From an uncultured Gammaproteobacteria bacterium (GTDB taxonomy: Bacteria > Patescibacteriota > Microgenomatia > PFEM01 > DATLAM01): 56,914 nt of DNA. The stretch is taken from NCBI GenBank assembly GCA_964566925.1, contig CAZMIZ010000006.1, positions 1 through 56,914 on the forward strand, read 5' to 3'. Shown here piece by piece: positions 20,380-39,679 of the stretch (the first letter of the stretch is position 1; every line of letters starts with the position of its first letter). The position numbers and the translations under genes were made by a program. The notes beneath the pieces were generated by a model that searched no databases, was not told the origin of the DNA, and was given only the letters and a program-made list of their open reading frames with translations.

Positions 20380-22977
20380 CTACGGGGCGATTTCTTGCCA
20401 GGTGTAGCTGGCTTGTTGGATTTCAAGCGGTGTGTTAATCCAAAGTTCAGGCGAGAAAATAAAAGTTTCAGCCGGAGTATCTCCATTATCTCCTTCCAGA
20501 TCTCGTCCAAGACTAAATCCTTCCCAGCCGACAAACATCCCTTTGCCGGTGAAAACATTCGCTGAGGACTCAATCTCAATGGTGCCGTCGGCAATGAGAA
20601 TACCTTCTAAAGCCGGGTTAACACCCGCATCGGTGACATCGCCCTCAATGGTAATATCCTCGCCAACGATGAAGGCCAAGAAATTATTATTGGTGCCGAG
20701 ATTAATTCTTTCTTTAATCGTCAAATTGCCAGGAACCAAAATGACCACTTTCTGACCAGAACTGTTGACATTCCAAGAACTCTCAGGAAGACTAAGGTTG
20801 CCGTCACCCTCCACTTTGTAAAACCCATCTAGGGCATTCAAATCATCAATAGAAGGATTCTCACTTAAGGATTCTGGAGAGCTAATCAGGTGATCAAAGT
20901 AGTCATAGCCATAAGTCAAACCCCCATCAGAAGAGTTAGTCAACCAACCCTCTTCTGAGGCGGAATCATTACCAAAACTACAGCTGGTGCCATAGGAAAT
21001 CACTCCCGGTGAATCCCCGTCGCCTACAAGAGAACAATGTTCACCGGCGGGGAGAGGGTTAGAAAGAACCCCCTCGGCGTGAACATCACCATCCTTAGTT
21101 TGGAACCAAGCCCCAATCGTGCTGGTAAGGCCAATATTAACGGTCTTAACATCACCATCGCCGCTCAAAGTAACCGTGGCATTATTATTATCGTCGCCAT
21201 CACAATAATAAGGATCGCTATAACCATCAGGGAAGCCGGTCATCATTACCGTAAGAGGCTCCCCAACCGGTAAATCAGTAAACTGGTAGTCCGGATTAGG
21301 GGTTTGGGTTCCGTAACCAGCAATTTGAACCGTTCCCCCACTAAGGGTATCGCCATCCAAAGGGCAAGACTCACCTGATCCAGTGATATCATAAACCGTT
21401 CCATTAACCGTTCCGGTCGAAGGCTCATTAGGAGTAAAATCAATCGTGTCGGAACAGACCGTACACTCATCGGCTGAACTGGTAATCCCACAAACCTTAA
21501 TCCAGACCTGCAAACTCCGGCTACCAGTCCCGCTACAGTCTCCTTCTCTTCCCTCACAGATATCCCAATTAAAACCATGAAGGGTATCCTCGTCGTAAGT
21601 CGGTGTCCATTCACCTATGTCACCACTACTCCGATCAATTATTTTGGTCCAAGGGCCACTGCTGCTAAGATTGCTTAAAGAAACTCTACCGATCCCCTGG
21701 CTAATGTAGCCCGAGCCCAAGCCACCAATCGAGTTATCAACCGCGGCCACCAAATTTGAACTTTCTTCGGTTACCTCTTCTGTTTCATCCCAGGCACCAG
21801 TTAAGTAAGTATAGTTTCCCTCTGCCCCTTCTGCTCCGTTAACCTTAATCAGAGTAATCTCGATATTATAAATAAGCATCGAGCCGGTCTCCTCGGTGTG
21901 ATAAAAATAAAGGGCTTCGGAGGCGGGCCGAAGATAAACTGTTTTTGAACCAGTCCCTCTAACCTCCTTTAAACTATTATATGGGCTTCCAAAAGAGGCA
22001 CCATGGCGATATAAATTAATTTCAGGCGCCCCATCTAACCTTTTATGATTAAATTCGATCTTAAAAATCAATCTCCCACTAGGAATGTTATTGATAGCTA
22101 AAACCGAGCCTGGATAGAGAATGAAAAAATTACCCTCATAATTTAAATATTTCCGATGATCTGGTGGGGGCGGAGGAGGATCGCCGTCATAGGGACAACC
22201 CCATTTACCGCTTACCGAACAAGTGGCTTTATACCAATCAAGACCTGATGCCCCGGGACAAGCACCACCTGTTGTCTGATAGTTGGGTCGGCTCGGCACA
22301 CCGCTAGGCCTAGTCGAGCAGAAACTACCATTACAGGGCCAACCCGGAACTGATTCCCAATCATTCGTTTGGTTAGAAAAACCAAAGTAACAAACCTGTT
22401 CGGAAGCTCCTAGGTCAAATGGAATCCAGCCATTTTCAAAAGCCTGCCGGCCGGTTCTGGTGATTAATTCCTCATCCACTAAAACCTGATCAGTTTGATT
22501 AGGGTTACTTTCTTGACTGGGAACATAGTTGGCGGTGTTAACCGCAATCCGCTGAGAAAGCCTAATCCCACAATAATCTGGTGGTCGAGGCCCACCGCCT
22601 TTATTATGAACTCCAAAATCATTAGCAAAAAAGGTTTCTTTCCCATCAACCGAAAGATTATAAACATCCACCGGTTCTGGTTGGTAATCAAGCTTGGTAA
22701 TTGTTTCAGGTATTAAGTCTCCTGTCTCATTTTTTACAAAAACCCAATCACCAACCTTTAAATCTTTAACTTCAATAAACGAAGCATCTTCTAAATCCGG
22801 CCCAGGAACCTCTACCTCCTGGGCATGAACCGAACCTAATAATGCAAAACAAAGAACCAAGAACAAAGAACCAAGAACAAACGTTTTCAGTCCTACCTGC
22901 CCGCCGAAGTCTCGGCGAAGGTGGGAGTTTTTAGTTTTAAGTATTAAGTATTTAGTTAATTCGGGCAGTTTTTTCAT
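20380..22977 (-). CDS. Large secreted protein: signal peptide, C-terminal half of a Hint domain, Cys-rich region, CPR-type surface C-terminal domain
   Basis: h-region ending VHA/QE; FIEVKDLKVGD...VYNLSVDGKETFFANDFGVHN; C-term WFQTKDGDVHA...YTWQEIAP. Confidence 0.8.
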   Translation of the reverse strand: MKKLPELTKYLILKTKNSHLRRDFGGQVGLKTFVLGSLFLVLCFALLGSVHAQEVEVPGPDLEDASFIEVKDLKVGDWVFVKNETGDLIPETITKLDYQPEPVDVYNLSVDGKETFFANDFGVHNKGGGPRPPDYCGIRLSQRIAVNTANYVPSQESNPNQTDQVLVDEELITRTGRQAFENGWIPFDLGASEQVCYFGFSNQTNDWESVPGWPCNGSFCSTRPSGVPSRPNYQTTGGACPGASGLDWYKATCSVSGKWGCPYDGDPPPPPPDHRKYLNYEGNFFILYPGSVLAINNIPSGRLIFKIEFNHKRLDGAPEINLYRHGASFGSPYNSLKEVRGTGSKTVYLRPASEALYFYHTEETGSMLIYNIEITLIKVNGAEGAEGNYTYLTGAWDETEEVTEESSNLVAAVDNSIGGLGSGYISQGIGRVSLSNLSSSGPWTKIIDRSSGDIGEWTPTYDEDTLHGFNWDICEGREGDCSGTGSRSLQVWIKVCGITSSADECTVCSDTIDFTPNEPSTGTVNGTVYDITGSGESCPLDGDTLSGGTVQIAGYGTQTPNPDYQFTDLPVGEPLTVMMTGFPDGYSDPYYCDGDDNNNATVTLSGDGDVKTVNIGLTSTIGAWFQTKDGDVHAEGVLSNPLPAGEHCSLVGDGDSPGVISYGTSCSFGNDSASEEGWLTNSSDGGLTYGYDYFDHLISSPESLSENPSIDDLNALDGFYKVEGDGNLSLPESSWNVNSSGQKVVILVPGNLTIKERINLGTNNNFLAFIVGEDITIEGDVTDAGVNPALEGILIADGTIEIESSANVFTGKGMFVGWEGFSLGRDLEGDNGDTPAETFIFSPELWINTPLEIQQASYTWQEIAP
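22851..22957 (+). repeat. Composite repeat inside a coding N-terminus: heptamer array (AAAGAAC/CAAGAAC x4), REP-like palindrome, heptamer array (AGTWTTA)
   Basis: 22851-22878 four heptamers; 22892-22925 CCTACCTGCCCGCCGAAGTCTCGGCGAAGGTGGG; 22933-22953 three heptamers. Confidence 0.85.
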
Positions 22978-22978
22978 T

Positions 22979-23674
22979 TTATCTTAAAATCTCATTTACT
23001 GTCGCCTGCAAATTAGTAATCAATTTATAAGTGAGCGTCTGCGAGAGAATCTCTTTGACTTTATCCAAAACTGTTTCTTGGTTTTTTAGTTTTTCAGTTT
23101 CTCCGTCATTCTTAGCTTTAACGGCTAAGAACGGGTGTTCTCCGGTAACTTTGACTTTCTTCCCACTTTCAGTTTCCAATTCATAATAGCCTTCTCTGGT
23201 ATATTCCAGAATTCCAGAAACCGTATTTTCCTTAATTTCTCCTGTTTCTGGATCAAATGAAGAAACAAGATCACCTTCTTCCAAATCTTTTATTTGGAGT
23301 TTTGGAGTTTTGCCTGCCTTGCCGGCGGGCAGGGAGCTTTCGGTATTTACCTCCGTTTCTCCCGTAAAACATCCGCCGCCGCCGCAACACTGACTGTATT
23401 CGTTCCCGTCATCATCCGCGCATTCTTGATAACTAACAGTTTTTGTGACACCAGGAGGATTACATAAATCAACGCCGCATTCTTGGCAAGGTTCCCAACC
23501 TTCGTCACATAATGACTGTGGACAACCACTCGAAACACTATAACAAGCCAAACAGGTCCCTGGAGGAATCCAGGTATCTCCTGCTAAAACTATTTTAGGC
23601 AGAAGAAATAAAGATAAGATTAAAATGAAAAAAAATCCTAAAAATAACTTTTTAAGATTCATCAGGCTCCTCAT
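22979..23674 (-). CDS. Secreted Cys-rich protein ending in the N-terminal half of a Hint domain
   Basis: Signal peptide ending VLA/GD; GGGG-CFTGETEV...IKDLEEGDLVSSFD...KVTGEHPFL (Hint blocks A and B). Confidence 0.8.
   Translation of the reverse strand: MRSLMNLKKLFLGFFFILILSLFLLPKIVLAGDTWIPPGTCLACYSVSSGCPQSLCDEGWEPCQECGVDLCNPPGVTKTVSYQECADDDGNEYSQCCGGGGCFTGETEVNTESSLPAGKAGKTPKLQIKDLEEGDLVSSFDPETGEIKENTVSGILEYTREGYYELETESGKKVKVTGEHPFLAVKAKNDGETEKLKNQETVLDKVKEILSQTLTYKLITNLQATVNEILR
23313..23333. repeat. REP-like palindrome inserted in frame (encodes LPAGKAG)
   Basis: CCTGCC-TTGCCGGCG-GGCAGG. Confidence 0.65.
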
Positions 23675-28197: not shown

Positions 28198-30294
28198 ATG
28201 GAAAAACTGGAAAATCTAATTGATAAGACTATTGAACGAAGCTTTTGTCTTCTCTTCTTTCTGGTTCCTCTCATTCTCACCCCTTTTAACTACGAGCTCT
28301 TCGAATACAATAAAATGCTGCTCGTTTATCTCTTTACCGCCATTATTGTGGCTGCCTGGCTAATCAAGATGATTCTTCAAAAAAGAATTATCTTTACCCG
28401 GACTTTTCTGGATCTTCCCTTACTTATTTTCTTAATTTCCCAATTACTTAGTTACTTTTTCTCTATTGACCGCCACACCAGCTTCTGGGGTTATTATTCC
28501 CGCTCTCATGGCGGCCTAGCCTCAACTTTTGCCTATCTCTGTCTTTATTGGGCTTTTGTTGCCAACATGGATCTCAAAAAAACACTTTCGGCTCTTCACT
28601 TTTCCCTTTTCGCTGGCGGTTTGGTGGCTGGCTACGGAATTCTGGAACATTTTGGCATTGATAAAAACTACTGGGTCCAGGATGTTCAAAACCGAGTTTT
28701 TTCAACCCTCGGCCAACCTAACTGGTTAGCCGCCTATTTGGTTGCCCTTCTTCCCTTAACCTGGGCCTTAACCCTTGAAACTCAAAAGAAGAAATCAAAA
28801 ACCGCTCTTTACTTTTTCCTCTCAGTCCTTTTTTATCTGGCCCTTACTTTTACCAAGTCCCGTTCCGGCTTTTTAGGCTTGAGCGCTGCCTATCTTGTCT
28901 TCTGGGGGATGATTTTCCTGCAACGTCTTCTCAGGCGTAAAAAAATCGCCCCTCTTTTGGCGCTGCGCCAAATGCCCAAAACCTTTTTCATTCTCACCGT
29001 TGTCATGATTCTTTTAAGCATTATTGCCGGCACTCCCTGGACACCAAAGCTAGAGCACCTCATCCGAAAGCCCCAAGCTAAACAACAAGCCTCCCCGATT
29101 CCTGCTGGCGGAACCGAGTCCGGTGAAATCAGGAAAATTGTCTGGCAAGGAGCAATTGATGTCTGGCGCCATTATCCCCTCTTAGGCACCGGTCCAGAAA
29201 CCTTTGCCTATTCTTATTACAATTTCCGTCCCCGGGAGCATAATGACGTCTCTGAATGGGATTTTCTTTACAACAAGGCCCACAATGAATATCTCAACTT
29301 TGCGGCCAACACCGGCACCCTAGGACTTTTGGCCTATTTAGGGGTAATTGGAGGGTTCATCTTTTGGTCGCTTAAAAAAATAATAACGGCAATCAGAGAA
29401 AATAAGAAAATTTCTAATTTCCCAAGATTTTATTATTTTAGTCTTGCCCTTTTGGCGGGTTACGCCAGCATCCTAGTCACCAACTTCTTTGGTTTTTCGG
29501 TGGTGGTCGTCGGCCTGCTCTTCTTCCTCTACCCTGCGTTCGCTTTCGTGCTCAGTCAGGAAGAAAATAATACAAAGGGCATAGCGCATAGGAACGAAAA
29601 AAAATCTTTGGATTGGCCACAAAAAATCTTTACATTTTTCTTTGCGCTGTGCGCTATTTACTTTTTCCTGCGCCTGGCGCAGTTTTGGTATGCCGACACT
29701 CTTTTTGCTAAAGGTAAAAAGCTTAATGAGGTCAATCAATATAATCAAGCCTTCGGGGAACTCCAAGCCGCTGTCCAGCTAAATTTTTCTGAACCTTTTT
29801 ACCATGATGAGTTGGCCCAATCCGCCGCCAGCCTGGCCGTAGCCGCCCACCAGCAAGAGGAAGCTAGTTTAAGCGCGGAATTAACTACCCTGGCGATTTC
29901 CGAATCTGATCAAACCTTAAAAATTTCTCCCTGGCATCTGAACTTCTGGAAAAACCGGACTCGGGTCTTCTATACTCTCGCCGAGATCGATGAAAGCTAT
30001 TATCAGGAGGCGCTTTCTTCTCTCCTCAAAGCCGCGGAAATTGCGCCCACTGATGCCAAAGTCTTCTATAATTTAGCCGTTCTTTATGGCCGGTTGGGCC
30101 AAAATCAAACCGCTATCGAGACCCTGGAAAAGACTATCCAATTGAAACCCAATTATGAAGCCGCCCGTTGGGCCCTGGCCCTTTTTTATGAACAAGAAGG
30201 AAATTTAGAGAAAGCCAAAGAAGAGTTAAATTATATCTTGGAAAAAATCAATCCCAACAACCAAACAGTCAAAGAGAAACTGGAGGAGCTTTGA
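28198..30294 (+). CDS. O-antigen ligase/Wzy_C-family membrane protein with C-terminal TPRs
   Basis: RVFSTLGQPNWLAAY, TKSRSG, GTGPETF, KAHNEYL; TPR helices at the C-terminus. Confidence 0.9.
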   Translation: MEKLENLIDKTIERSFCLLFFLVPLILTPFNYELFEYNKMLLVYLFTAIIVAAWLIKMILQKRIIFTRTFLDLPLLIFLISQLLSYFFSIDRHTSFWGYYSRSHGGLASTFAYLCLYWAFVANMDLKKTLSALHFSLFAGGLVAGYGILEHFGIDKNYWVQDVQNRVFSTLGQPNWLAAYLVALLPLTWALTLETQKKKSKTALYFFLSVLFYLALTFTKSRSGFLGLSAAYLVFWGMIFLQRLLRRKKIAPLLALRQMPKTFFILTVVMILLSIIAGTPWTPKLEHLIRKPQAKQQASPIPAGGTESGEIRKIVWQGAIDVWRHYPLLGTGPETFAYSYYNFRPREHNDVSEWDFLYNKAHNEYLNFAANTGTLGLLAYLGVIGGFIFWSLKKIITAIRENKKISNFPRFYYFSLALLAGYASILVTNFFGFSVVVVGLLFFLYPAFAFVLSQEENNTKGIAHRNEKKSLDWPQKIFTFFFALCAIYFFLRLAQFWYADTLFAKGKKLNEVNQYNQAFGELQAAVQLNFSEPFYHDELAQSAASLAVAAHQQEEASLSAELTTLAISESDQTLKISPWHLNFWKNRTRVFYTLAEIDESYYQEALSSLLKAAEIAPTDAKVFYNLAVLYGRLGQNQTAIETLEKTIQLKPNYEAARWALALFYEQEGNLEKAKEELNYILEKINPNNQTVKEKLEEL

Positions 30295-31316
30295 AAGAAA
30301 CACTTTTAGCTAAAAAGCGCCCAGGCAAAAAAGTGGCTTGTTTTACCTGCCAACGGCGCTGTCTCGTCGCTCCTGGTAAATGGGGCTATTGTCAAACCAG
30401 AGTTAACAAAAACGGCAAACTTTATTCAGTCATTTATAATCTGGTTTCCTCGGTTAACATTGACCCAATTGAAAAGAAGCCGGTTTTCCATTACCAGCCT
30501 GGTTCGCCCTGTCTCTCTCTAGGCACCTACGGCTGCAACTTCCGTTGTAAATTCTGTCAAAACTGGCTTATTTCCCATGTTAACGGCGGTTCATTAAATA
30601 TCGACAACGAAAAAGCTCTTTCTCCTAAGGAGGCGGTTAAATTGGCCAAGAAATCAAAAGCCTCGGGCATTGCCTGGACCTACAACGAGCCCGCCATTTG
30701 GCTGGAATATTCGCTTGAAGGCGCCAAGCTAGCCAAAAAAGAAGGTCTTTATACCTGCTGGGTAACCAACGGCTACGCCACCAAAGAAGCGATTGACGCC
30801 ATTGCCCCTTATCTTAGTATTTACCGAGTGGATCTCAAAAGCTTTGATGACCGCCTTTATCAAAAACTAAGCAACATTCCTTTGGCGGCTGGCGTTTTTA
30901 AAACCCTAAAATATGTTCATGACAAATATCCCCAGATCCACATTGAGTGTATTACCAATGTCGTCCCTACCTGGAATGATAGCGAAGACAATCTCAAGCG
31001 GATAGCAAACTGGATTATCAAAAACATTGGCCCTAAAACCCCCTGGCATGTCACCCGCTTTTTTCCTTACGCCGATTTGACTGACGTCCCTCCAACCCCT
31101 GAAGAAACCCTTTATCAAGCCCGGAAACTAGGCATGAAAGAAGGATTAGAGTTTGTTTATATCGGCAATATGGCGGTGGACAAAGAGGACGACACCTTTT
31201 GCCCGAAATGTAAAAACCTGGCCATCCGCCGCACCGGCTACTCGGTTGAGGTTTTGGGGGTGGACAAGGAAGGAAAATGTGAAGATTGCGGTGAAGATTT
31301 GAATATTAAAATGTAA
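30291..31316 (+). CDS. amrS: AmmeMemoRadiSam system radical SAM enzyme
   Basis: IDPIEKKPVFHYQPG, GCNFRCKFCQN, WTYNEP, PWHVTRFFP, FVYIGN. Confidence 0.93.
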   Translation: MKETLLAKKRPGKKVACFTCQRRCLVAPGKWGYCQTRVNKNGKLYSVIYNLVSSVNIDPIEKKPVFHYQPGSPCLSLGTYGCNFRCKFCQNWLISHVNGGSLNIDNEKALSPKEAVKLAKKSKASGIAWTYNEPAIWLEYSLEGAKLAKKEGLYTCWVTNGYATKEAIDAIAPYLSIYRVDLKSFDDRLYQKLSNIPLAAGVFKTLKYVHDKYPQIHIECITNVVPTWNDSEDNLKRIANWIIKNIGPKTPWHVTRFFPYADLTDVPPTPEETLYQARKLGMKEGLEFVYIGNMAVDKEDDTFCPKCKNLAIRRTGYSVEVLGVDKEGKCEDCGEDLNIKM

Positions 31317-31319
31317 GAA

Positions 31320-32783
31320 ATGAAAACCAAGAAATTCACCATTCTTCACTCCAACGACATGCATGGCGACTTCTTTGCTGAAGACCAACGGGGTAAATTA
31401 ATCGGTGGCTTAGCTCTCCTTTCCGGCTATATCAATCAAGTCAGAAAAGAGGAAGAAAACGTTCTCTTTGTTATCTCCGGCGACATGCTCCAAGGCTCAA
31501 TCATTGATTCGGAGTACAAAGGCATCTCCACCATGGAAATTATGAACTATCTGGCTCCAGATGTGGTCTCTACTGGTAACCACGAGTTTGATTATGGCCT
31601 CCCCCATCTTCTTTTCCTGGAACGAGTGGCCAACTTCCCAATTGTCAATGCCAATCTTTATATTAAAGGTTATAACAAGCGCTTGATGAAACCTTATCTT
31701 ATCCTTAGAAAAGCTGGGTTTGATATCCTCTTTACCGGCATTATCACCGAGAAGGTCATGGATAGTATTAACCAAGATGAGCTCATCGGCAGTTTTATTA
31801 GCCTAGAGGAAGCCAGCCATGAGGTCGGTAAAATCTGTAATGCCTACAAAAATGACGATATCGACCTAACCGTCCTTTTAACCCATATTGGCTTTGACTC
31901 CGATGTTGAGCTGGCCAAACTTTTAAAGCCCCAGTGGGGCGTGGATCTAATCATTGGTGGTCATTCTCACACAATCTTGAAAAAACCAGCTAAAGTCAAT
32001 AACATTCTGATCACTCAGGCCGGAGTCGGCACCAACCAGGTCGGCCGGTTCGATCTGGTGGTTGATGACGATACTAACAGCATTATTGACTATCGATGGA
32101 AGCTGATTCCCATTGAAAGTGGCCTCGCCAAACCAGATCAGAAATTAAAAGACTTTATTGCTTCCTTTAAGGGCAAAGTAGATCATAAATATAATACCGT
32201 TATCTGTAAATTTGCCAAAAAATTAATCCACCCGAAAAGGGAAATCGAAACTTCACTGGGTAATCTCATTGCTGATGCTTTTGCCGAAAACGCTGAATGT
32301 GATGTGATGCTGGTGGGCAGTGGCTCAATCAGGGTAAAAGAAATGGGACCGGTGGTCACTTTGATGGATTTGATGGCCTGTTTCCCTTATGATGACACCT
32401 TAACGCGTTTTTCCATTCCTGGCTCAAAGCTTAGGAAAATCTTCGAACATTTTATGAGGAAGAAAAATCGAAACAGCGAGGGTGAGTGCTATCAGGTCAG
32501 CAGTAATGTCCGGACAGTTTACTCAGACAAGGAAGGCAAACTCCTGACTTTTGAGATTAATCAAGTATCAGTCAAAGACACCCAGTTTTATACTCTTTGC
32601 TTACAAAATTATCATTTTAAAAACTCGGCTGAATACTTAAATATCACCAATCAAGAATTGCTGGAGTCGGGCAAGCAAAAAGTAGTCACCACTTCGGCCC
32701 AAGATGTTCTGGAAGAATATTTGAGAAGTCATCAAAACATCAGCCGCGAAACTGAAGGCAGGCTTCAATATAAACCAAAATAA
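31320..32783 (+). CDS. Bifunctional metallophosphatase / 5'-nucleotidase
   Basis: LHSNDMHG, SGDMLQG, GNHEFD, LTHIG, IIGGHSHT, 5'-NT C-domain. Confidence 0.92.
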   Translation: MKTKKFTILHSNDMHGDFFAEDQRGKLIGGLALLSGYINQVRKEEENVLFVISGDMLQGSIIDSEYKGISTMEIMNYLAPDVVSTGNHEFDYGLPHLLFLERVANFPIVNANLYIKGYNKRLMKPYLILRKAGFDILFTGIITEKVMDSINQDELIGSFISLEEASHEVGKICNAYKNDDIDLTVLLTHIGFDSDVELAKLLKPQWGVDLIIGGHSHTILKKPAKVNNILITQAGVGTNQVGRFDLVVDDDTNSIIDYRWKLIPIESGLAKPDQKLKDFIASFKGKVDHKYNTVICKFAKKLIHPKREIETSLGNLIADAFAENAECDVMLVGSGSIRVKEMGPVVTLMDLMACFPYDDTLTRFSIPGSKLRKIFEHFMRKKNRNSEGECYQVSSNVRTVYSDKEGKLLTFEINQVSVKDTQFYTLCLQNYHFKNSAEYLNITNQELLESGKQKVVTTSAQDVLEEYLRSHQNISRETEGRLQYKPK

Positions 32784-32849
32784 CAAAAGATTTTGGCTTC
32801 TTAGTCATCTGATAGCCCGAGTCTTGCTTTAGTATGATAAAATCCAGGT

Positions 32850-33275
32850 GTGACAGAAAGACTTTCTCCAATAACAGTTGGGTTTCAAAGAACCGTCATT
32901 AACGTTGCCAGTCTTAGGGTCAATGCTAAAAACCCAGAAGAAAGAATCCAAGCGGTTCCCAACTCGGAAAGCATAAGGGCGGCTGTTTTTCTTCCAGAAG
33001 ACGGCCATTTAGAGATTGCGGATAAGCCTTGGGAAGGCCACGCTGGGCTTTGGCTTAAAAGGGCAGGTGTTTGCCAAGAAGAAGGGCTTAATCCGCCATC
33101 AGCTGAGACCGTTTCCGGAGAATGTTTTGAGTTTGAAGGCGAAAGATATCTTCATCTTTACATTGACCCAAGCCAAGAGGTCATTGAAGCTCTGCAAACA
33201 AATTATCCTGAGTTAATTCTCTTAGGCCTGGGTTTTAAACCTCTCCCTTCTGTCAAGGAAGCTTCAGGAGCCTAG
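32850..33275 (+). CDS. Hypothetical protein
   Basis: 141-aa ORF, GTG start 6 nt after TGA-TAAAAT. Confidence 0.55.
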   Translation: MTERLSPITVGFQRTVINVASLRVNAKNPEERIQAVPNSESIRAAVFLPEDGHLEIADKPWEGHAGLWLKRAGVCQEEGLNPPSAETVSGECFEFEGERYLHLYIDPSQEVIEALQTNYPELILLGLGFKPLPSVKEASGA

Positions 33276-33326
33276 AACCACCTTTCTCTTTTGAAAATTC
33301 TTCTTGGCTGCTGTAAAATCTAACCA

Positions 33327-33944
33327 GTGTTGGTTTTTGCGTGTCTCAGTCCTCATCCACCAATTATTTTGCCTACGGTTGGCTCGGAAACCGATCGAGC
33401 CCAGGTAAAGAAAACGATCGCATCGCTGGAAAAATTAGGTAAACAATTAGCTAAAGCCAAACCTGATTATCTCCTTATCTCCTCCCCTCATCCGGACTGG
33501 GGGTTCAATGTCCCCCTTCACTTCTTAGCCAAAGATGTTCGCGGGATTGAGGTGAAAACTTATCTCACCGATTCTGCCTCTCCTGGAGTCCATTTCAAGC
33601 GCGGAAAAGAACTCATTAAAAGTTTACCTCGAGCCAGGCGGTGGGCCTGGATTGCCTCCGGGGACATGAGTCATCGCTTAAAAGAAGACGGCCCCTATGG
33701 CCTCCACCCTTCAGGCCTAAAATTTGATAAGAAGCTTATTAACCTTTTAAAGAAAAAAGATGTCCCGGGAATCTTAAATCTTGATCCAAGACTGGTTGAA
33801 GAGGCTGGCGAATGCGGTTTGCGCTCCTTTTGTCTACTTCTGGGGGTTTTAGAAGGAGCGAAAATCAAATGGAAGCCGGAAATTTTATCCTACGAAGGCC
33901 CATTCGGCGTCGGTTATTTAGTGGCCAATTTCAAACTCAAATGA
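33327..33944 (+). CDS. amrB: AmmeMemoRadiSam system protein B (MEMO/LigB-like, shortened)
   Basis: SPHPPII, ISSPH, IASGDMSHRL, AGECGLRS, SYEGPFGVGY. Confidence 0.88.
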   Translation: MLVFACLSPHPPIILPTVGSETDRAQVKKTIASLEKLGKQLAKAKPDYLLISSPHPDWGFNVPLHFLAKDVRGIEVKTYLTDSASPGVHFKRGKELIKSLPRARRWAWIASGDMSHRLKEDGPYGLHPSGLKFDKKLINLLKKKDVPGILNLDPRLVEEAGECGLRSFCLLLGVLEGAKIKWKPEILSYEGPFGVGYLVANFKLK

Positions 33945-34462
33945 GAAATGCTTACGTTAATTTAGCCAAAAAAACAATTAAAACCCATCTGGAGACAGGA
34001 AAGGTTCCTTCTCTCCCAAAAAACCTGCCTGTTGAAATGCTCGCCAGAAAAGCCGGGGTCTTTGTTTCCCTTCATCAAAAAAACGGCTCCCTTCGAGGCT
34101 GCATTGGCACTTTTAAGCCAACCAAAGAAAATTTGGCCCAAGAAATCACCACCAACGCGATTGCCGCCGCCACCCAGGATCCCCGTTTTCCTCCCGTCAC
34201 CTTAAAGGAATTACCTAATCTTGTCTTTTCTGTTGACATCCTTTCTGCCTCAAAAAAAGTATCAAACCATAAACTTTTAGATCCCAAAAAATACGGCCTG
34301 ATTGTTTCCACGGGAGATGGCCGAAGGGGCTTACTTCTCCCTGATTTACCAGGCGTGGAGACGGCCGAAGATCAAATGGTGATTTGCCGGCGCAAAGCCG
34401 GAATTGGGTCAAAAGAAAAAGTCGCTCTAAAAACCTTCACGGTGAAACGTCACCACGAATAG
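33941..34462 (+). CDS. amrA: AmmeMemoRadiSam system protein A (AMMECR1 family); start moved to ATG 33941
   Basis: GVFVSLH...LRGCIGT, AATQDPRFPPV, GLLLPDL; ATGA overlap with amrB stop. Confidence 0.92.
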   Translation: MRNAYVNLAKKTIKTHLETGKVPSLPKNLPVEMLARKAGVFVSLHQKNGSLRGCIGTFKPTKENLAQEITTNAIAAATQDPRFPPVTLKELPNLVFSVDILSASKKVSNHKLLDPKKYGLIVSTGDGRRGLLLPDLPGVETAEDQMVICRRKAGIGSKEKVALKTFTVKRHHE

Positions 34463-34494
34463 ATTTCCAGCCTCACTTTTGTTAAAATAAAGTT

Positions 34495-35043
34495 ATGGCA
34501 ATTCAAAAAATCATCACTGTGTCTAATCCGTCGCTGCGCAAGAAGTCAAAGCCGATCAGAAAAGTAGACCAAAAGATCAAAAATTTGGCTAAAGATTTAA
34601 TTGATACGGCTAAGGCCGCCAAAGAGCCTAGGGGTGTTGGCCTTTCCGCGGTTCAAATCAACCAGCCAGTCAGGATTTTCGTGATTAAGCGGGGTAAGAA
34701 ATTTGTCCCTTTTATTAATCCCCAGATCGTTTGGCAATCAAAAAAGCGCTTCAGTCAAGTTCTGGAAAAAGAAAAACTCTTCATGGAAGGTTGTCTTTCA
34801 ATCCCGGGCTACTACGGCTTTGTTGATCGACCTCATGCAGCGAAGCTTAAATGGCAGGATCTTCAGGGGAAAACCCACCAAGAACAATTCGAAAATCGAG
34901 AATCGGCTTATGTCCAGCATGAACTTGACCATTTGAACGGTGTCCTTTTCGTTGACCGAATCTTAAAGCAAAAAGGCAGTGTCTATAAACTGGGTAAAGA
35001 TGATCAAGGCGAGGAAACCTTGGTTGAAGTTAATCTTCCATGA
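34495..35043 (+). CDS. def: Peptide deformylase
   Basis: GVGLSAVQI, EGCLSIP, QHELDHLNG. Confidence 0.97.
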   Translation: MAIQKIITVSNPSLRKKSKPIRKVDQKIKNLAKDLIDTAKAAKEPRGVGLSAVQINQPVRIFVIKRGKKFVPFINPQIVWQSKKRFSQVLEKEKLFMEGCLSIPGYYGFVDRPHAAKLKWQDLQGKTHQEQFENRESAYVQHELDHLNGVLFVDRILKQKGSVYKLGKDDQGEETLVEVNLP

Positions 35044-35918
35044 AACCAAGAGTCATTTTTTTTGGTTCTGATAAATGCTCTGTTATCGTGCTGAATCAAT
35101 TGGTTAATGACAGCCGGTTCAAGATTGTGGGCGTGGCCACCCTTGAACCCAAGCCAAAAGGGAGAAAGCGCGAAGTAACCCCTAATCCGGTTGAAGAATA
35201 CACGAAAACTCTTTTTGAGATTAAATTTTTCCCTATTAAAAGATTTGATCAAAAATCAATCAATCAATTCAAGAAACTCAAAGCCGATGTCGGTATCTTG
35301 GCCTGGTACGGTAAGATTCTGCCTAAAGAAATCCTGGCAGTTCCTAAGTATGGAGTGCTAAACATCCACCCTTCTCTCCTCCCCAAATATCGCGGGCCTT
35401 CTCCGGTCCAAGATGCCATCATCAATGGCGATCAGGAAGCTGGAGTAACTATCTTTAAGATGGATGAGCAAATGGACCATGGCCCGATTGTGGCTCAATT
35501 CAAAGAAGAGATTAAGTCTAACGACACCGCCGAATCTTTGTACGAACGGCTTTTTACTCTCGGCGGTCAAGTACTAACCACTATTCTTCCTTCTTATCTA
35601 GAGAGCCAGATTAAACTCCGCCCCCAGAATCATCGCCAAGCCACTTTTACCCGAATCCTCAACCGAGATAGCGGCAAAATCGACTGGACGTTAGCCGACC
35701 AGCAAATTGAACGTCTTATCCGAGCCATGCACCCCTGGCCTGGCGCCTGGACCCTCCTTCGCTCTCCGAGCTTCGAAGGGCAGGCAAAAAGGTTAAAAAT
35801 CCTGGAAGCCCATCTTGAAAAAGGTAAGCTAATCTTAGATCGGGTTCAGCTTGAAGGGAAAAAACCAGTCGCCTGGAAGCAATTTCAAGAAGGCTATCCT
35901 GATTCGAAACTGATTTAA
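35040..35918 (+). CDS. fmt: Methionyl-tRNA formyltransferase
   Basis: NIHPSLLPKYRGPSP, MDEQMDHGPI, RAMHPWPGAW. Confidence 0.96.
   Translation: MKPRVIFFGSDKCSVIVLNQLVNDSRFKIVGVATLEPKPKGRKREVTPNPVEEYTKTLFEIKFFPIKRFDQKSINQFKKLKADVGILAWYGKILPKEILAVPKYGVLNIHPSLLPKYRGPSPVQDAIINGDQEAGVTIFKMDEQMDHGPIVAQFKEEIKSNDTAESLYERLFTLGGQVLTTILPSYLESQIKLRPQNHRQATFTRILNRDSGKIDWTLADQQIERLIRAMHPWPGAWTLLRSPSFEGQAKRLKILEAHLEKGKLILDRVQLEGKKPVAWKQFQEGYPDSKLI
35752..35785. repeat. REP-like palindrome inserted in frame in fmt (encodes LLRSPSFEGQA)
   Basis: CCCTCCTTCGCTCTCCGAGCTTCGAAGGGCAGGC; resembles the reverse complement of 22892-22925. Confidence 0.6.
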
Positions 35919-36172
35919 GCAGCTTTAGGGGTAAGGGGTTTTTTAGGGGCAGGTTTAACTTCTTCAGTTTTTGTTTCTTTTTTAGGCTTCTGGGCTTTTT
36001 TGACCGTTCTTAAACACTTGGTACACAGCCGCCATCTGCCAAACTTACCATTGAGCACCCCTCGAAAGGGTTGAAGGTTAGGCAAACTTATCTTCCGAGT
36101 TCTATTTTTAGCGTGGGAAACATTGCGGCCAATCATCACGCCTTTACCACACCGGTCGCATGCGTAAGCCAT
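35915..36172 (-). CDS. rpmB: 50S ribosomal protein L28 (start moved to ATG 36172)
   Basis: MAYACDRCGKG...GRNVSHAKNRTRK..LPNLQ...LCTKCLR. Confidence 0.95.
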   Translation of the reverse strand: MAYACDRCGKGVMIGRNVSHAKNRTRKISLPNLQPFRGVLNGKFGRWRLCTKCLRTVKKAQKPKKETKTEEVKPAPKKPLTPKAA

Positions 36173-36194
36173 ATGTGTTATACTATAGCACAAA

Positions 36195-36265
36195 CAATGA
36201 CAAATTTCTAATGTCTAATTTCTAAATTTTTTAGATCAATTAGTCATTAGGTCAATTAGAAATTG
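36195..36265. repeat. Pair of mutually inverted heptamer arrays with no intervening gene
   Basis: Left CAATGAC AAATTTC TAATGTC TAATTTC TAA; right arm reverse complement CAATTTC TAATTGACC TAATGAC TAATTGATC TAA. Confidence 0.75.
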
Positions 36266-36270
36266 CCCAT

Positions 36271-36918
36271 ATGTTTGCTAACCCAATTCTTTTAATTGTC
36301 GCCTTTCTTTTCTCTCTTTCTATTCATGAAGCCGCTCATGCTTACATGTCTGATCGACTTGGTGATCCAACCGCTCGGCTCTCCGGCCGAGTGACTCTTA
36401 ATCCCCTGGCCCACCTTGATCCAATCGGCACCCTTCTACCCTTATTCCTTCTTTTCAGTGGTTCGCCAATCATCTTTGGTTGGGGTAAACCGGTCCCTTT
36501 TGACCCTTTCAACCTAAGAAATCCAAGGCGTGATTCGGCCCTAATTTCTTTTGCCGGGCCTGCATCCAATCTTATTCTGGCTACCATTCTGGCTGTAGTG
36601 ATCCGTTTTGGTTACCTCTTTTTTGGCACCAGCGGCTTAATCTTTGAATCTTTTCTAGTTCCAGTAATCGCTTTAAACGTCATGTGGGCTCTTTTTAACC
36701 TGATTCCCCTTCATCCGCTTGATGGCGGTAAAGTTTTGATCGGCCTTTTGCCGCGCAATTGGGCCATTAAGTGGGACGAAATCTTAGGCCAATACGGCTT
36801 AATCATTCTGATCTTTCTTATCTTTCCCTTTTTCGGTGTTTCCGGTATTATCTTGATCCTCTCCCCATTAGTTAGTCTAATCTTAAATATTCTTCTTCCA
36901 GGCACACCCTTAGTCTAA
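36271..36918 (+). CDS. Site-2 protease (M50 family)
   Basis: HEAAH, NPLAHLDP, FAGPASN, FNLIPLHPLDGGK. Confidence 0.94.
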   Translation: MFANPILLIVAFLFSLSIHEAAHAYMSDRLGDPTARLSGRVTLNPLAHLDPIGTLLPLFLLFSGSPIIFGWGKPVPFDPFNLRNPRRDSALISFAGPASNLILATILAVVIRFGYLFFGTSGLIFESFLVPVIALNVMWALFNLIPLHPLDGGKVLIGLLPRNWAIKWDEILGQYGLIILIFLIFPFFGVSGIILILSPLVSLILNILLPGTPLV

Positions 36919-36948
36919 AATTGACCCCTTTTGTTATAGTTTAGCCTC

Positions 36949-36977
36949 TTGACTGTGAAAAGGATTTTTGCTATCCT
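36949..36977 (+). promoter_or_regulatory. sigma70-type promoter for 6S RNA
   Basis: TTGACT-17 nt-TATCCT with TG extension. Confidence 0.6.
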
Positions 36978-36985
36978 AAAACCAT

Positions 36986-37134
36986 CCTGCCGTGACGGGC
37001 TTGAGCCGTAAGAGATTTTTTCCTCTACAGATGCTCACGCCGGGAGCGCGACTTCCTAAGGTCCGTGGACTTTAGGAGAGTGCACCCACTTGTTCGTTCG
37101 GGGAAAACACCCTACGGTAACCTGGGCGGCAGGG
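36986..37134 (+). ncRNA. ssrS: 6S RNA
   Basis: Closing stem CCTGCCG/CGGCAGG, CCGTA/TACGG, central bubble, GGGAGC...GTGCACCCAC motif, terminal hairpin CCTAAGGTC..GACTTTAGG. Confidence 0.72.
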
Positions 37135-37167
37135 CTTTCTATCCTCAATTTTTACCATTCTCAATAA

Positions 37168-37197
37168 TTGCTAACTATCGCCAGAATTTAGTATAAT
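37168..37197 (+). promoter_or_regulatory. Promoter of the tRNA cluster
   Basis: TTGCTA-18 nt-TATAAT; AATTTAGTATAAT recurs before tRNA-Thr(GGU). Confidence 0.6.
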
Positions 37198-37210
37198 ATT
37201 GTTAGAACAC

Positions 37211-37396
37211 GCTGGTGTCGCTCAGTGGTAGAGCAACGGTTCTGCCTGGCCCGTTAATTGCCGAGGTAGTTCAGCGGCAGAACACTTGTTTTGTAAACAA
37301 GATGTCGTGGGTTCGACTCCCACCCTCGGCTCAAGATTCGGGCAATTTTACGGGCTAAACCGTCGGTCGTGAGTTCGATCCTCACCGCCAGCTCCA
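37211..37396 (+). tRNA. Interrupted tRNA-Thr-like gene: 5' half 37211-37244, 111-nt insert, 3' half 37356-37396 with encoded CCA
   Basis: Acceptor GCTGGTG/CGCCAGC, D-arm GCTC/GAGC, anticodon stem ACGGT/ACCGT, T-arm GTGAG-TTCGATC-CTCAC, U73, CCA; insert lies in the anticodon loop. Confidence 0.8.
37260..37331 (+). tRNA. tRNA-Thr(UGU), nested inside the interrupted tRNA
   Basis: GCCGAGG/CCTCGGC acceptor, CTTGT-TTTGTAA-ACAAG anticodon arm (TGT at 37292-37294), GTGGG-TTCGACT-CCCAC. Confidence 0.93.
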
Positions 37397-37479
37397 GCCA
37401 GGGTGGCAGAGTGGACAATTGCACCGGTCTGTAAAACCGGCGCCGCAAGGCTTCGGGGGTTCGAATCCCTCCCCTGGCA
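37397..37479 (+). tRNA. tRNA-Tyr(GUA)
   Basis: GCCAGGG/CCCTGGC, CCGGT-CTGTAAA-ACCGG, long variable arm. Confidence 0.95.
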
Positions 37480-37506
37480 CCGCGTTCAACGCGGACTATT
37501 AATTAA

Positions 37507-38433
37507 ATGAAATATCTTGCCCAGCTAGTTAAGCTTTTCCTTTTGAGTGCTCTTCTCTCCTCTCCCTTGATCAGCGCCTCATATCTTTTCCCGGCCCAGT
37601 CAGCATCAAATTCTGTTCCGATCACCCCAATTATTTTCCATTACCAGGAAAGAGAGCCGGTCCACCCATCAGAAAGCAAATTCGCCCTTTTGATAGCTCA
37701 AGAACCTCAACCAAAAGTTTTGGGTGCCCAAATTGAAAAAGAGATAGTCGAAGAAGAAAGTCTTCAATCCGAAGTTTCTGGTACTTACACCATTGCTGTT
37801 CTTGGCGATTCAATGGTGGATGTTTTACAGCCTGAGCTGCCCCAACTGGAAAATGCCTTGAAGAAATACTATCCCCTGGCCGAATTTAAACTCCTAAACT
37901 ATGGCGTCGGCGCCTCTGACCTTGAATACGGCTTAACCAGGCTGACTTCTGGTTACACTTACCTCGGCCACTCCTTTCCCTCTCTCCTTTCCCAAAATCC
38001 GGATATCATTGTCGTTGAATCATTTGCCTACAATCACTGGACCAATAACCAGACCGAGCTTGATCGCTATTGGTTAACTTTAGCTGATTTGACCAACATC
38101 ATTAAAAGCCAAACTAGAGCCAAAATTGTTCTGGCGGCCACCATTGCGCCGGATGTTAATACCCTTTGCGATGGCATTGAAGGCCTTCAATTGAACTCTG
38201 AACAAAAGCGGGAAAAGGCCGCTGCCATTAAGGCCTATTTACAAAATCTGATCAACTTCGCCTCTTCTCAAAATTATCCCCTGGCTGATGCCTATCATCC
38301 CAGCCTTGACAGTGAAGGCAATGGTAACCCTCTCTATATAAACGCCGGTGATCACCTTCACCCTTCAGGCCCAGGCGGTGAACTTTTTGCCCAAAAAGTG
38401 GCTGAAGCGATTTACAAAAACAGCCTTCTTTAA
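37507..38433 (+). CDS. Secreted SGNH/GDSL hydrolase
   Basis: Signal peptide; VLGDSM, NYGVGA, YN, DHLHP. Confidence 0.85.
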   Translation: MKYLAQLVKLFLLSALLSSPLISASYLFPAQSASNSVPITPIIFHYQEREPVHPSESKFALLIAQEPQPKVLGAQIEKEIVEEESLQSEVSGTYTIAVLGDSMVDVLQPELPQLENALKKYYPLAEFKLLNYGVGASDLEYGLTRLTSGYTYLGHSFPSLLSQNPDIIVVESFAYNHWTNNQTELDRYWLTLADLTNIIKSQTRAKIVLAATIAPDVNTLCDGIEGLQLNSEQKREKAAAIKAYLQNLINFASSQNYPLADAYHPSLDSEGNGNPLYINAGDHLHPSGPGGELFAQKVAEAIYKNSLL

Positions 38434-38479
38434 ACTGGTAATTTATTCCCAAAATTTAGTATAATAGTCACATCGTTTA

Positions 38480-38506
38480 CACTGAGCGAGCAAAGTGAGT
38501 CGAAGT
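38480..38506. repeat. REP-like element CACTGAGCG...AGTCGAAGT abutting the tRNA 5' end
   Basis: CACTGAGCGAGCAAAGTGAGTCGAAGT(G) resembles the CTGAGCG..GTCGAAG class of bacterial palindromic repeats. Confidence 0.5.
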
Positions 38507-38580
38507 GCTCCTGTAGTTAAGTGGTATAACAGCAACTTGGTAAGTTGCAATCTCGGGTTCGATTCCCGACGGGAGCTCCA
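38507..38580 (+). tRNA. tRNA-Thr(GGU) with encoded CCA
   Basis: GCTCCTG/CGGGAGC, GCAAC-TTGGTAA-GTTGC, TCGGG-TTCGATT-CCCGA. Confidence 0.95.
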
Positions 38581-38641
38581 TATAGGAATGCCTTCTCAAT
38601 TTCTCCAAATTTAGTCTGAAGTATTGGTATAATGTGAATAT

Positions 38642-39679
38642 ATGAACTCGTATTTTTCAATCTTCATTACCGGTTTTGATCGGGTTATAGAAAAAGCCTT
38701 AACTAATTCGATTAATGGTGTCCAGATTGAGTTATTGACTGATGGGCTGGTCATTTATAAAACCACAGCAGGTCTCAATAAAATTAGGGGCTTTAAGTTT
38801 CTAAACAATAGCTTCATTTTATTAAGAAAATTTGATCATCTATCCTCTAATCCAGTCAGGGACATAGTTAAAACTTTGATCAAAGACCGAAATCTTAGAA
38901 AGGCAATAAAAAACCATTTTTCAGGCAAAAAACTGAAATTCAGAATCCGAGCTTCGATAAAAAACCAATTTGTACTAATAGACAAAAACTTATTAAGAAG
39001 CTTAGAGGAAAGGATCGTAAAAGATGTCCCAAACCTGACAGTGGATCGAAGTCTTCCAGATATTGAAATTCTTATTTCTATAAGAAGTGAAGGGTTTGGA
39101 CTTGTTGGAATCCAGTTTAGCAAAAGACCAAATTATGAAAAAATTCTAGCCAAAGGAGAACTCTATCCTGAATTAGCATATATTCTCTGTTTGATTTCTG
39201 AGCCTGATAAAAAAGATGTGTTCTTTGATCCGTTTGCGGGGCACGGCGCCATCCCAGCTCAACGACTAAACTTTCCCTACAAACAAATAAGAGCAGGTGA
39301 AATAGACAGAGATTTACAAAAGGAGCTTAAGAATAAGTTTAGCGAAAAAGTAATTGTGGATCCAGTTAACGCACTCAGTTTAAGCACTGTTCCAGATGAT
39401 TCAATTGACAAGATTGTAACCGATCCTCCATGGGGCCTATATGATACTAATAAAGATATTCTAAAATTTTATAATTTAATGCTCAAGCGGTTTGTTCGTG
39501 TTATAAAACCCAACGGAATTATGGTAATTCTCACGGCACAAAAAGAGCTTTTTAAAGGGTTGATTAATCGTTACAAAAACCAGTTAAAACTCGAGGAAGA
39601 ATATAGCACTTTAGTTTCTGGTAAGAAGGCAGGGGTATACAAAATCAGAAAAATCAGCACTCAGTCATGTGGTTTTTGA
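38642..39679 (+). CDS. SAM-dependent RNA methyltransferase (THUMP + UPF0020/Trm11-like)
   Basis: FFDPFAGHG motif I, IVTDPPWG motif IV, N-terminal THUMP-like region. Confidence 0.75.
   Translation: MNSYFSIFITGFDRVIEKALTNSINGVQIELLTDGLVIYKTTAGLNKIRGFKFLNNSFILLRKFDHLSSNPVRDIVKTLIKDRNLRKAIKNHFSGKKLKFRIRASIKNQFVLIDKNLLRSLEERIVKDVPNLTVDRSLPDIEILISIRSEGFGLVGIQFSKRPNYEKILAKGELYPELAYILCLISEPDKKDVFFDPFAGHGAIPAQRLNFPYKQIRAGEIDRDLQKELKNKFSEKVIVDPVNALSLSTVPDDSIDKIVTDPPWGLYDTNKDILKFYNLMLKRFVRVIKPNGIMVILTAQKELFKGLINRYKNQLKLEEEYSTLVSGKKAGVYKIRKISTQSCGF

Follow-up and report, generated by a model that had tools for sequence, protein, structure and literature searches.

A complete tRNA-Thr(UGU) gene nested in the interrupted resident tRNA-Thr(UGU) gene of a Microgenomates bacterium

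A complete tRNA-Thr(UGU) gene was found inside the anticodon loop of a second, split tRNA-Thr gene in a 57-kb stretch of the genome of an uncultured bacterium (hereafter the window). The locus comprises 186 nucleotides (nt) on the plus strand (positions 37211–37396; Table 1). This nested arrangement, noticed in a first-pass annotation of the DNA, was confirmed from the sequence, by ARAGORN, by Rfam and by comparison with relatives. The closest relatives were Microgenomates-group bacteria of the candidate phyla radiation (CPR), for example Woesebacteria and Gottesmanbacteria, and the locus is most likely an ordinary Thr(UGU)-Tyr(GUA) operon of a Microgenomates bacterium in which the Thr gene was broken by an insertion at the DNA level. 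As judged from the comparative evidence set out below, the resident tRNA-Thr(UGU) gene has probably been replaced, recently and by insertion, by the inner gene, which would be the working copy, the outer halves being a broken leader and spacer.

The insert totals 111 nt (37245–37355) and consists of 15 nt, an intact tRNA gene lacking an encoded CCA, and 24 nt, just as the first-pass annotation had delimited it. The inner gene was typed as tRNA-Thr(tgt) by ARAGORN and matched Rfam family RF00005 over its full length (model positions 1–71) with 72.2 bits against a gathering score of 29. Its sequence and the ARAGORN drawing were canonical at U8, A9, G18G19, U33, A37 and in the T loop, and the Thr identity features G1-C72, C2-G71, U73, G35 and U36 were all present. 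For comparison, contigs of relatives and other metagenome contigs were gathered as loci numbered with the prefix L. The 3′ part of the inner gene was nearest to Thr(UGU) genes of other Microgenomates (89% identity over 46 nt, L026), and the inner and outer genes were 75% identical over their 3′ portions (32 nt).

In the outer gene all 21 of 21 stem pairs form. The acceptor stem joins GCTGGTG (37211–37217) to CGCCAGC (37386–37392) in seven pairs, U6·G67 among them, and on the 5′ side is followed by U8, C9, the D arm (GCTC-AGTGGTA-GAGC, with the stem GCTC/GAGC), A26, the anticodon-stem strand ACGGT (37236–37240) and UCUG. The 3′ piece runs from UAA through the complementary strand ACCGT (37359–37363), the variable loop CGGTC, the T arm (GTGAG-TTCGATC-CTCAC) and the acceptor strand CGCCAGC to U73 (37393) and an encoded CCA (37394–37396), which directly abuts the start of tRNA-Tyr at 37397. 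ARAGORN outside its intron mode and Rfam reported the inner gene only. Joining the outer halves in silico (37244^37356) gave 75 nt that ARAGORN called tRNA-Thr(tgt) with the loop UCUGUAA, in agreement with the loop UC-UGU-AA that had been predicted to result from precise removal of the insert. The intron mode of ARAGORN found an interrupted tRNA at 37211–37396, but with a different splice point, and called it Ala(ggc).

Table 1. Coordinates of the features of the nested tRNA-Thr locus and its transcription unit in the window
Feature	Position	Strand	Basis or content
Promoter-like site TTGCTA-18-TATAAT, predicted to drive the tRNA operon	37168–37197	+	Consensus scan, 10/12 matches
Outer tRNA-Thr(UGU) 5′ half, positions 1–35	37211–37244	+	Acceptor 5′ strand, D arm, anticodon stem 5′ strand, loop UCUG
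Insert 5′ flank CCTGGCCCGTTAATT, 15 nt	37245–37259	+	No other copy in window at ≤3 mismatches
Inner complete tRNA-Thr(UGU), without encoded CCA, likely working gene	37260–37331	+	ARAGORN, Rfam RF00005
Insert 3′ flank CAAGATTCGGGCAATTTTACGGGC, 24 nt	37332–37355	+	No other copy in window; pairs with 5′ flank
Outer tRNA-Thr 3′ half, positions 36–76	37356–37396	+	UAA, anticodon stem 3′ strand, variable loop, T arm, acceptor 3′ strand, U73, CCA
tRNA-Tyr(GUA), same transcription unit	37397–37479	+	ARAGORN; Rfam 57.8 bits
Terminator-like hairpin CCGCGTTCAACGCGG, 3′ of tRNA-Tyr	37480–37494	+	Consensus scan; L084 has the same hairpin after Tyr

The outer gene has intact counterparts at the same place in relatives. 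The shared gene order, comprising an M50 protease gene, a structured RNA of ~148 nt, a promoter, Thr(UGU) and Tyr, recurs in L084, L233 and L210–L212, all with an uninterrupted Thr(UGU) gene; the adjacency of Thr(UGU) and Tyr is kept in relatives, and three lineages have an uninterrupted Thr(UGU) gene at this position. In an alignment of the window with L209, L084, L210 and L208 the −35 element TTG and the −10 element GTATAAT were invariant. The Thr(UGU) gene of L084 and L233 reads GCTGGCG...CGCCAGCT and the outer acceptor of the window GCTGGTG...CGCCAGCT, the 3′ acceptor strand and discriminator base being identical. Another uninterrupted Thr(UGU) gene is present in L210–L212, and the Thr(UGU) sequence at this locus varies among the close relatives L208, L209 and L210.

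The nearest relative with data was L209, with an M50 protease 86% identical to that of the window; L207 (M50 95% identical) and L232 were uninformative as they stop before the tRNA, as was L083, which is without the region. L209, from the population sampled in SRR31655991, carries GCTGGTGTAGCTCAGTGGTAGAGCAACGGTTTTGT up to its contig end with G35-T36 uninterrupted, as in an intact anticodon. The outer 5′ half of the window is identical to L209 at 32 of 34 positions, differing only by A9C and U33C. Given the shared locus, promoter and acceptor stem, we identify the outer halves as the orthologous gene that was resident here, its anticodon being UGU, and the insert of 111 nt as a lineage-specific DNA insertion, because the syntenic relatives are uninterrupted and the outer 5′ half agrees with L209. 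The suggestion that the outer gene might be a remnant of tRNA-Thr(CGU) was refuted, since the orthologous genes read UGU in their anticodon regions (L209 ...GGTTTTGT; L084 and L233 TTTTGTAA). A Thr(CGU) gene with a near-identical 5′ half in L147 (6755–6831) was set aside, as it lies at another locus on an unrelated contig; it shares positions 1–32 (except 9) and ACCGTCGGTC with the outer gene, a likeness which suggests that the bodies of Thr isoacceptors can be very similar. The Logan contig of L209 (1567–1601) stops one base past the insertion point of the window, inside the anticodon, which could be due to low coverage or to a graph branch from an insertion polymorphism in the population.

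As the sequence is derived from a metagenome, an assembly artefact in which two Thr tRNA genes from different strains were misjoined might be suspected, the more so as tRNA genes are often contig break points, the stop of L209 inside its Thr gene being an example. We regard such an artefact as highly improbable. The independent Logan contig SRR14817123_59664 is 100% identical to window positions 32271–38734 (6.46 kb) and spans both junctions. Exact repeats shared by 37200–37400 and the remainder of the window reach 12 nt at most, much less than the k-mer sizes of assemblers, so that a k-mer chimera is unlikely, and a chimera would not set a whole gene symmetrically between two mutually fitting halves. 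The misassembly that the first-pass annotation had warned of was thus not borne out and appears unlikely. Nor is the nested structure a product of chance, because relatives have an intact orthologue of the outer halves.

The two bases that distinguish the outer 5′ half from L209 are derived, as L209, L084, L210 and L208 all have A9 and U33. Positions 9 and 33 are nearly invariant in working tRNAs: C33 occurred in 5 of 431 distinct tRNAs from the gathered loci, which bears out the earlier remark that it is unusual, and C9, to which no attention had been drawn, in none of 155 Thr tRNAs. The outer gene thus departs from a working tRNA by C33 and C9 as well as by a 111-nt insert at 35/36 with no known removal signal, and C9 and C33 are compatible with relaxed selection on decoding. 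Alternatively, the insertion may comprise 114 bp that begin with ‘C33’ and took the place of TTG; the restoration of UGU on joining the halves would then be partly coincidental. Taken together, the comparative data point to a recent DNA insertion, because the relatives are uninterrupted at the same place and A9C and U33C are derived.

From the general biology of RNase P and of tRNA 3′ maturation, the steps of an insertional replacement can be proposed. An insertion of 111 bp between positions 35 and 36, or of 114 bp with the loss of 3 bp, would have brought in a complete tRNA-Thr(UGU) gene of different sequence with 15 and 24 bp of foreign flank. The conserved resident promoter would transcribe the whole unit, RNase P would cut at 37260 and 37397, and a 3′ nuclease and the CCA-adding enzyme would finish the inner tRNA, yielding a working inner tRNA-Thr(UGU) and tRNA-Tyr. 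Of the outer halves there would remain a leader and a spacer fragment, perhaps still paired to each other, with neither an anticodon loop nor a decoding role, and we infer that the outer gene has ceased to function. Candidate routes of DNA entry are the capture of a fragment of a relative's tRNA locus, by break repair or transformation, and the stump of a mobile element. A tandem duplication followed by two deletions was also considered as the origin and rejected as less parsimonious than a single insertion.

Codon use in the window, which had been proposed as a check for ACG, showed that ACA and ACG together make up 23% of Thr codons in the open reading frames (ORFs), so that a tRNA with anticodon UGU is needed. 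The resident Thr(UGU) gene was probably single copy. An insertion into a probable sole copy would survive only with a replacement, which may explain why host and guest share an anticodon.

Several observations weigh against replacement by insertion. No donor locus and no insertion mechanism was identified. Between the window and L209, 129 of 216 third codon positions (60%) of the neighbouring M50 gene and 17 of 77 positions of the intergenic spacer have changed, compared with only 2 of 34 in the outer 5′ half; this would mean a very recent insertion or halves that remain under constraint. The outer halves retain every stem pair, a canonical T loop and the encoded CCA, which RNase P cleavage at tRNA-Tyr would expose exactly. 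C33 is also found in a few apparently intact tRNAs, including Thr(GGU) of the relative L086, and for this reason C9 and C33 are no proof of relaxed selection. Finally, the flanks pair with each other, and their arms GCCCGT/ACGGGC are similar to the outer anticodon stem (ACGGT/ACCGT); neither is expected of a random captured fragment, and the similarity hints at the stump of an element or at a structure-dependent process.

Folding of the locus bears on what might become of the outer pieces. The minimum free energy (MFE) fold of the 186 nt consists of two nested cloverleaves (−73.4 kcal/mol, z = −3.8), and none of 200 shuffled sequences folded as well. The inverted repeats of the flanks, GCCCGTTAA/TTTACGGGC and AATTGCC/GGCAATT, are present as described in the first-pass annotation; the flank pairs in the MFE fold differ in detail, being GCCUG/CGGGC plus GCCCG/CGGGC. 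Beside the outer anticodon stem 8 unpaired nt on the 5′ side face the three nt UAA on the 3′ side, with a 2 × 2 loop in the MFE fold. A likeness between the 5′ flank and the 3′ end of tRNA-Tyr (CCTGGC...) and the short repeats AGAACAC and CAAGAT were rejected as being at chance level.

It had been proposed that processing of the inner tRNA leaves a two-piece tRNA-like RNA with a non-decoding role, or that the flanks form a conformational switch controlling the output of tRNA-Thr. The processing itself, with two outer pieces as its by-product, is also what we would expect, whereas nothing indicates a role for the pieces. They would be able to stay annealed: the cofold of 37211–37259 with 37332–37396 reached −46.3 kcal/mol, against −13.9 and −17.4 kcal/mol singly (sum −31.3), and retained the acceptor, D and T helices and an extended anticodon helix. 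Such an RNA would have a ready CCA end once RNase P had cut at tRNA-Tyr, and the slight divergence of the outer 5′ half from L209 would fit a stable, regulatory or otherwise non-decoding RNA. On the other hand, the arrangement is absent from every relative examined, and there is thus no conservation to argue for a two-piece function. Bacterial threonyl-tRNA synthetase uses G35 and U36, which would sit at the broken end. As to a switch, the helix AATTGCC/GGCAATT, which invades the inner acceptor stem, was 4.8 kcal/mol less stable than the nested cloverleaf when forced. We consider a function of either kind distinctly unlikely.

Known types of tRNA intron were looked for in the insert. The core of a group I intron (P3–P8) usually takes up more than 200 nt, and the 39 non-tRNA nt of the insert are too few to hold it, as had been argued before; Rfam searches of the region gave no intron family match at E values up to 1, and the insert had no group II signature. 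Bacterial group I introns in tRNA-Leu(UAA), tRNA-fMet and other tRNAs share with the insert their position in the anticodon loop. In the bulge-helix-bulge motif each exon-intron boundary lies in a 3-nt bulge, and a 4-bp helix separates the two bulges, which are on opposite strands. It cannot be drawn here, where a single 3-nt bulge (UAA, on the 3′ side) lies opposite 8 unpaired nt, and its reported absence was upheld. The intron-containing, split and tri-split tRNAs of archaea, which depend on EndA and RtcB, resemble the locus in having halves separated by foreign sequence, and the flanks extend the anticodon stem as the leaders of split tRNAs do; they differ in having the bulge-helix-bulge in place of an 8-nt by 3-nt internal loop, and the window is from a bacterium, for which no such endonuclease is known. 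The archaeal tRNA-Trp intron that contains a box C/D guide RNA offers a parallel for a second functional RNA inside a tRNA intron that is freed by processing; in that case, however, removal is by way of the bulge-helix-bulge and the host tRNA is functional, whereas function of the host is doubtful in the window. Neither EndA nor RtcB was seen among the window ORFs scanned, and in the ORFs checked between ~20.4 and 50.1 kb (within ~17 kb of the locus) we found no integrase, transposase, homing endonuclease, RtcB or RNA ligase domain, so that the suggested check for rtcB was negative over that range.

The only precedent that we found is in the Lak megaphages, in which tRNA genes for Thr(TGT), Tyr, Phe and Gly carry anticodon-loop insertions of 79–114 nt with a tRNA-like acceptor and T arm (PMC6784885, Table S6). 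These insertions are polymorphic among close relatives and unexplained, and the intron of the Lak tRNA-Thr(TGT) ‘itself may encode a tRNA’ (Devoto et al., 2019; PMC6784885). ARAGORN does find a tRNA-like gene within the Lak Thr insertion. The window insert, being similar in kind, might be a mobile tRNA-shaped intron that is excised by tRNA-processing enzymes (RNase P, RNase Z and trimming) with ligation of the exons, one precursor giving two Thr tRNAs, much as the first-pass annotation had envisaged in proposing a splicing route. The likeness extends to size (~80–115 nt), position in the anticodon loop, Thr(UGU) as a host, a tRNA-like fold, presence and absence among close relatives, and the lack of any signature of group I introns or of a bulge-helix-bulge. 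The cloverleaf of the outer gene is intact, and its anticodon UGU would be restored by exact removal. RNase P and RNase Z leave 3′-OH and 5′-P ends, which a classical RNA ligase could join.

Against this, the processing cuts would lie 15 and 24 nt from the exon boundaries, RNase P cutting 15 nt inside the insert, so that a precise junction needs further steps; there are no recognisable splice signals, and no ligase gene is among the window ORFs checked. The spliced product would bear C33 and C9. Neither in sequence nor in architecture does the insert resemble the Lak insertions, which form a sequence family with a 5′ hairpin beginning tacaN, an A/T-rich linker attaaattaaact and a tRNA-like part that runs right up to exon 2 at its 3′ end. 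The Lak insertions occur in several tRNAs and their nested element is low-scoring, with another or no clear anticodon, whereas the window has a high-scoring canonical guest with the anticodon of its host, flanked on either side by sequences that pair with each other; it is a single case and lies in the genome of a cell, a CPR bacterium. Splicing of the Lak introns themselves has not been demonstrated. Among 522 other tRNAs from ~210 loci, covering CPR relatives and unrelated metagenome contigs, none was nested between two free halves; the proposed search of relatives for the two halves with variable inserts thus found no second example, and the intron mode of ARAGORN gave only false joins of neighbouring tRNAs in relatives. 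Excision with religation into two Thr tRNAs therefore appears quite improbable. More broadly, and by analogy, the insert could be a cellular CPR counterpart of the Lak insertions, mobile and excised by RNase P and RNase Z, leaving a religated or annealed two-piece tRNA-Thr, which we consider unlikely. None of the functional alternatives of the first-pass annotation gained support, and the comparative data appear to favour a recent DNA insertion. New here is a whole tRNA gene as the insert that disrupts a tRNA gene of the same anticodon, with the Lak phages as the one unexplained precedent.

The same working state of the locus, with another origin, would result if the insert were the stump of a tyrosine-recombinase element that targeted the anticodon loop with its own tRNA-Thr gene and later lost all but 111 bp, the flank arms being relics of core sites resembling the anticodon stem. 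The anticodon loop is a classic integrase target, and the breakpoint at 35/36 lies within it. Both the flank arms and the outer anticodon stem contain ACGG/CCGT. Disruption of tRNA genes by the integration of mobile elements has been modelled in archaea (Sugahara et al., 2012; PMC3293823). In L010 (10922–11124) an orphan Thr(UGU) 5′ half, covering positions 1–35 with one indel, is followed after 95 nt by an intact gene; it stops at the same 35/36 point as the break in the window, and no recombinase was found near it. A metagenome scan with the outer 5′ sequence, which matched at least 120 Thr tRNAs of many bacteria and was too general for use other than as a base rate, contained no nested gene and five that were interrupted by other things among the matches listed; L122 and L192 are broken after TTTGTAA, in the manner of genes into which an element has integrated, and in L189 the break is in the T loop. 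Two unrelated bacteria have Thr(UGU) genes with ORF-bearing anticodon-loop insertions of 0.5–0.65 kb (L106, 12550–13210; L145, 1231–1760) and a matching acceptor 3′ strand downstream; the ORF of L106 is HNH-like, and both insertions are probably group I introns with homing endonucleases.

Elements that integrate in anticodon loops resemble the locus in the place of the break, in that the incoming DNA keeps tRNA function and in leaving orphan halves, as in L010. They differ in duplicating only the part of the tRNA beyond the crossover and in carrying a recombinase gene, whereas the window insert supplies a whole unrelated gene copy in 111 bp, with no recombinase gene inside or adjoining it or in the ORFs checked within ~17 kb. 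No direct repeat of a tRNA segment that could be an att core was found at the junctions, which have inverted flank arms only, and the putative overlap regions are not alike. Such an origin would require two precise deletions. No second copy of the flanks lies elsewhere in the window. The 16-mer GGGCAATTTTACGGGC matched 19 viral contigs, which we ascribe to chance because nothing was alike beyond the 16 bases; a 28-mer of the inner tRNA matched no viral contig, and BLAST searches of phages and plasmids gave only generic tRNA-Thr similarity to the inner gene (~75% identity). A 17-nt match of the 3′ flank at the start of the M50 ORF of L051, with no further similarity, was also taken as chance. 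All told, an element stump is an unlikely origin of the insert, and insertional replacement, by whichever route the DNA entered, remains our preferred reading.

Other tRNA loci in the gathered set showed irregularities of their own. Partial tandem tRNA copies, some including promoters, lie beside intact tRNAs in L025 (8040–8500, minus strand), L012 (5460–5560), L052 (6562–6597) and L078 (7078–7093), and in L025 a pseudo-Tyr and a pseudo-Thr have their anticodon arm replaced by TCCCG...CGGGA hairpins. The tRNA loci of this clade seem prone to duplication and decay, an instability that counts in favour of the replacement reading, as do the orphan half in L010 and the varying Thr(UGU) sequence at the locus. 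The Thr(UGU) genes of L006 (~6909–6985), L054 (~6856–6935) and L078 (6848–6922) have the T loop TTGCAAAA instead of TTCGAAT and are missed by ARAGORN. In L006 and L054 Thr(UGU) is followed by an ORF of ~296 amino acids (aa) ending YRPDFYLP...EVK, which looks like a PD-(D/E)XK endonuclease, and then by tRNA-Tyr.

Genes in the neighbourhood of the nested locus encode a peptide deformylase, a formyltransferase, ribosomal protein L28, the M50 site-2 protease, an SGNH hydrolase and a THUMP methyltransferase; a protein search with the N-terminal 130 residues of the SGNH hydrolase gave no match. The ~148-nt RNA between the M50 gene and the tRNA operon is rod-shaped (36986–37133, plus strand) and has its own promoter-like site (36949–36977). 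It is present in L084, L208, L209, L210 and L233 with a consensus fold of 52 pairs, eight of which show compensatory changes, and had no match in Rfam at E values up to 1; it might be related to 6S RNA or represent another, unclassified, small RNA of Microgenomates. Further upstream (30291–34462, plus strand) a radical SAM gene (30291–31316) precedes adjacent LigB-family (33327–33944) and AMMECR1 (33812–34462) genes, an arrangement similar to the AmmeMemoRadiSam trio. On the minus strand at 20380–23674, two adjacent ORFs of 865 and 231 aa match Hint, intein-splicing and pretoxin-HINT domains and may represent a polymorphic-toxin-like or intein-bearing locus.

For annotation, the locus has the practical consequence that standard tRNA finders give only the inner gene and intron-tolerant modes mis-call the outer one. 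Were the locus a cellular relative of the Lak insertions, it would imply a protein-enzyme-dependent intron or split-tRNA pathway in Bacteria, unlike group I introns and the archaeal bulge-helix-bulge, and would tie a CPR bacterium to the unexplained Lak introns; it would also provide a compact substrate of ~190 nt, with all ends predictable, for testing the excision of tRNA-shaped introns by tRNA-processing enzymes. If insertional replacement is the correct reading, the locus would be a snapshot of how an essential single-copy tRNA gene can be replaced: the newcomer is inserted into the old gene and is then expressed from the promoter of that gene, whose two halves are still perfect. Such intermediates bear on the origin of intron-containing and split tRNA genes and are rarely seen in Bacteria.

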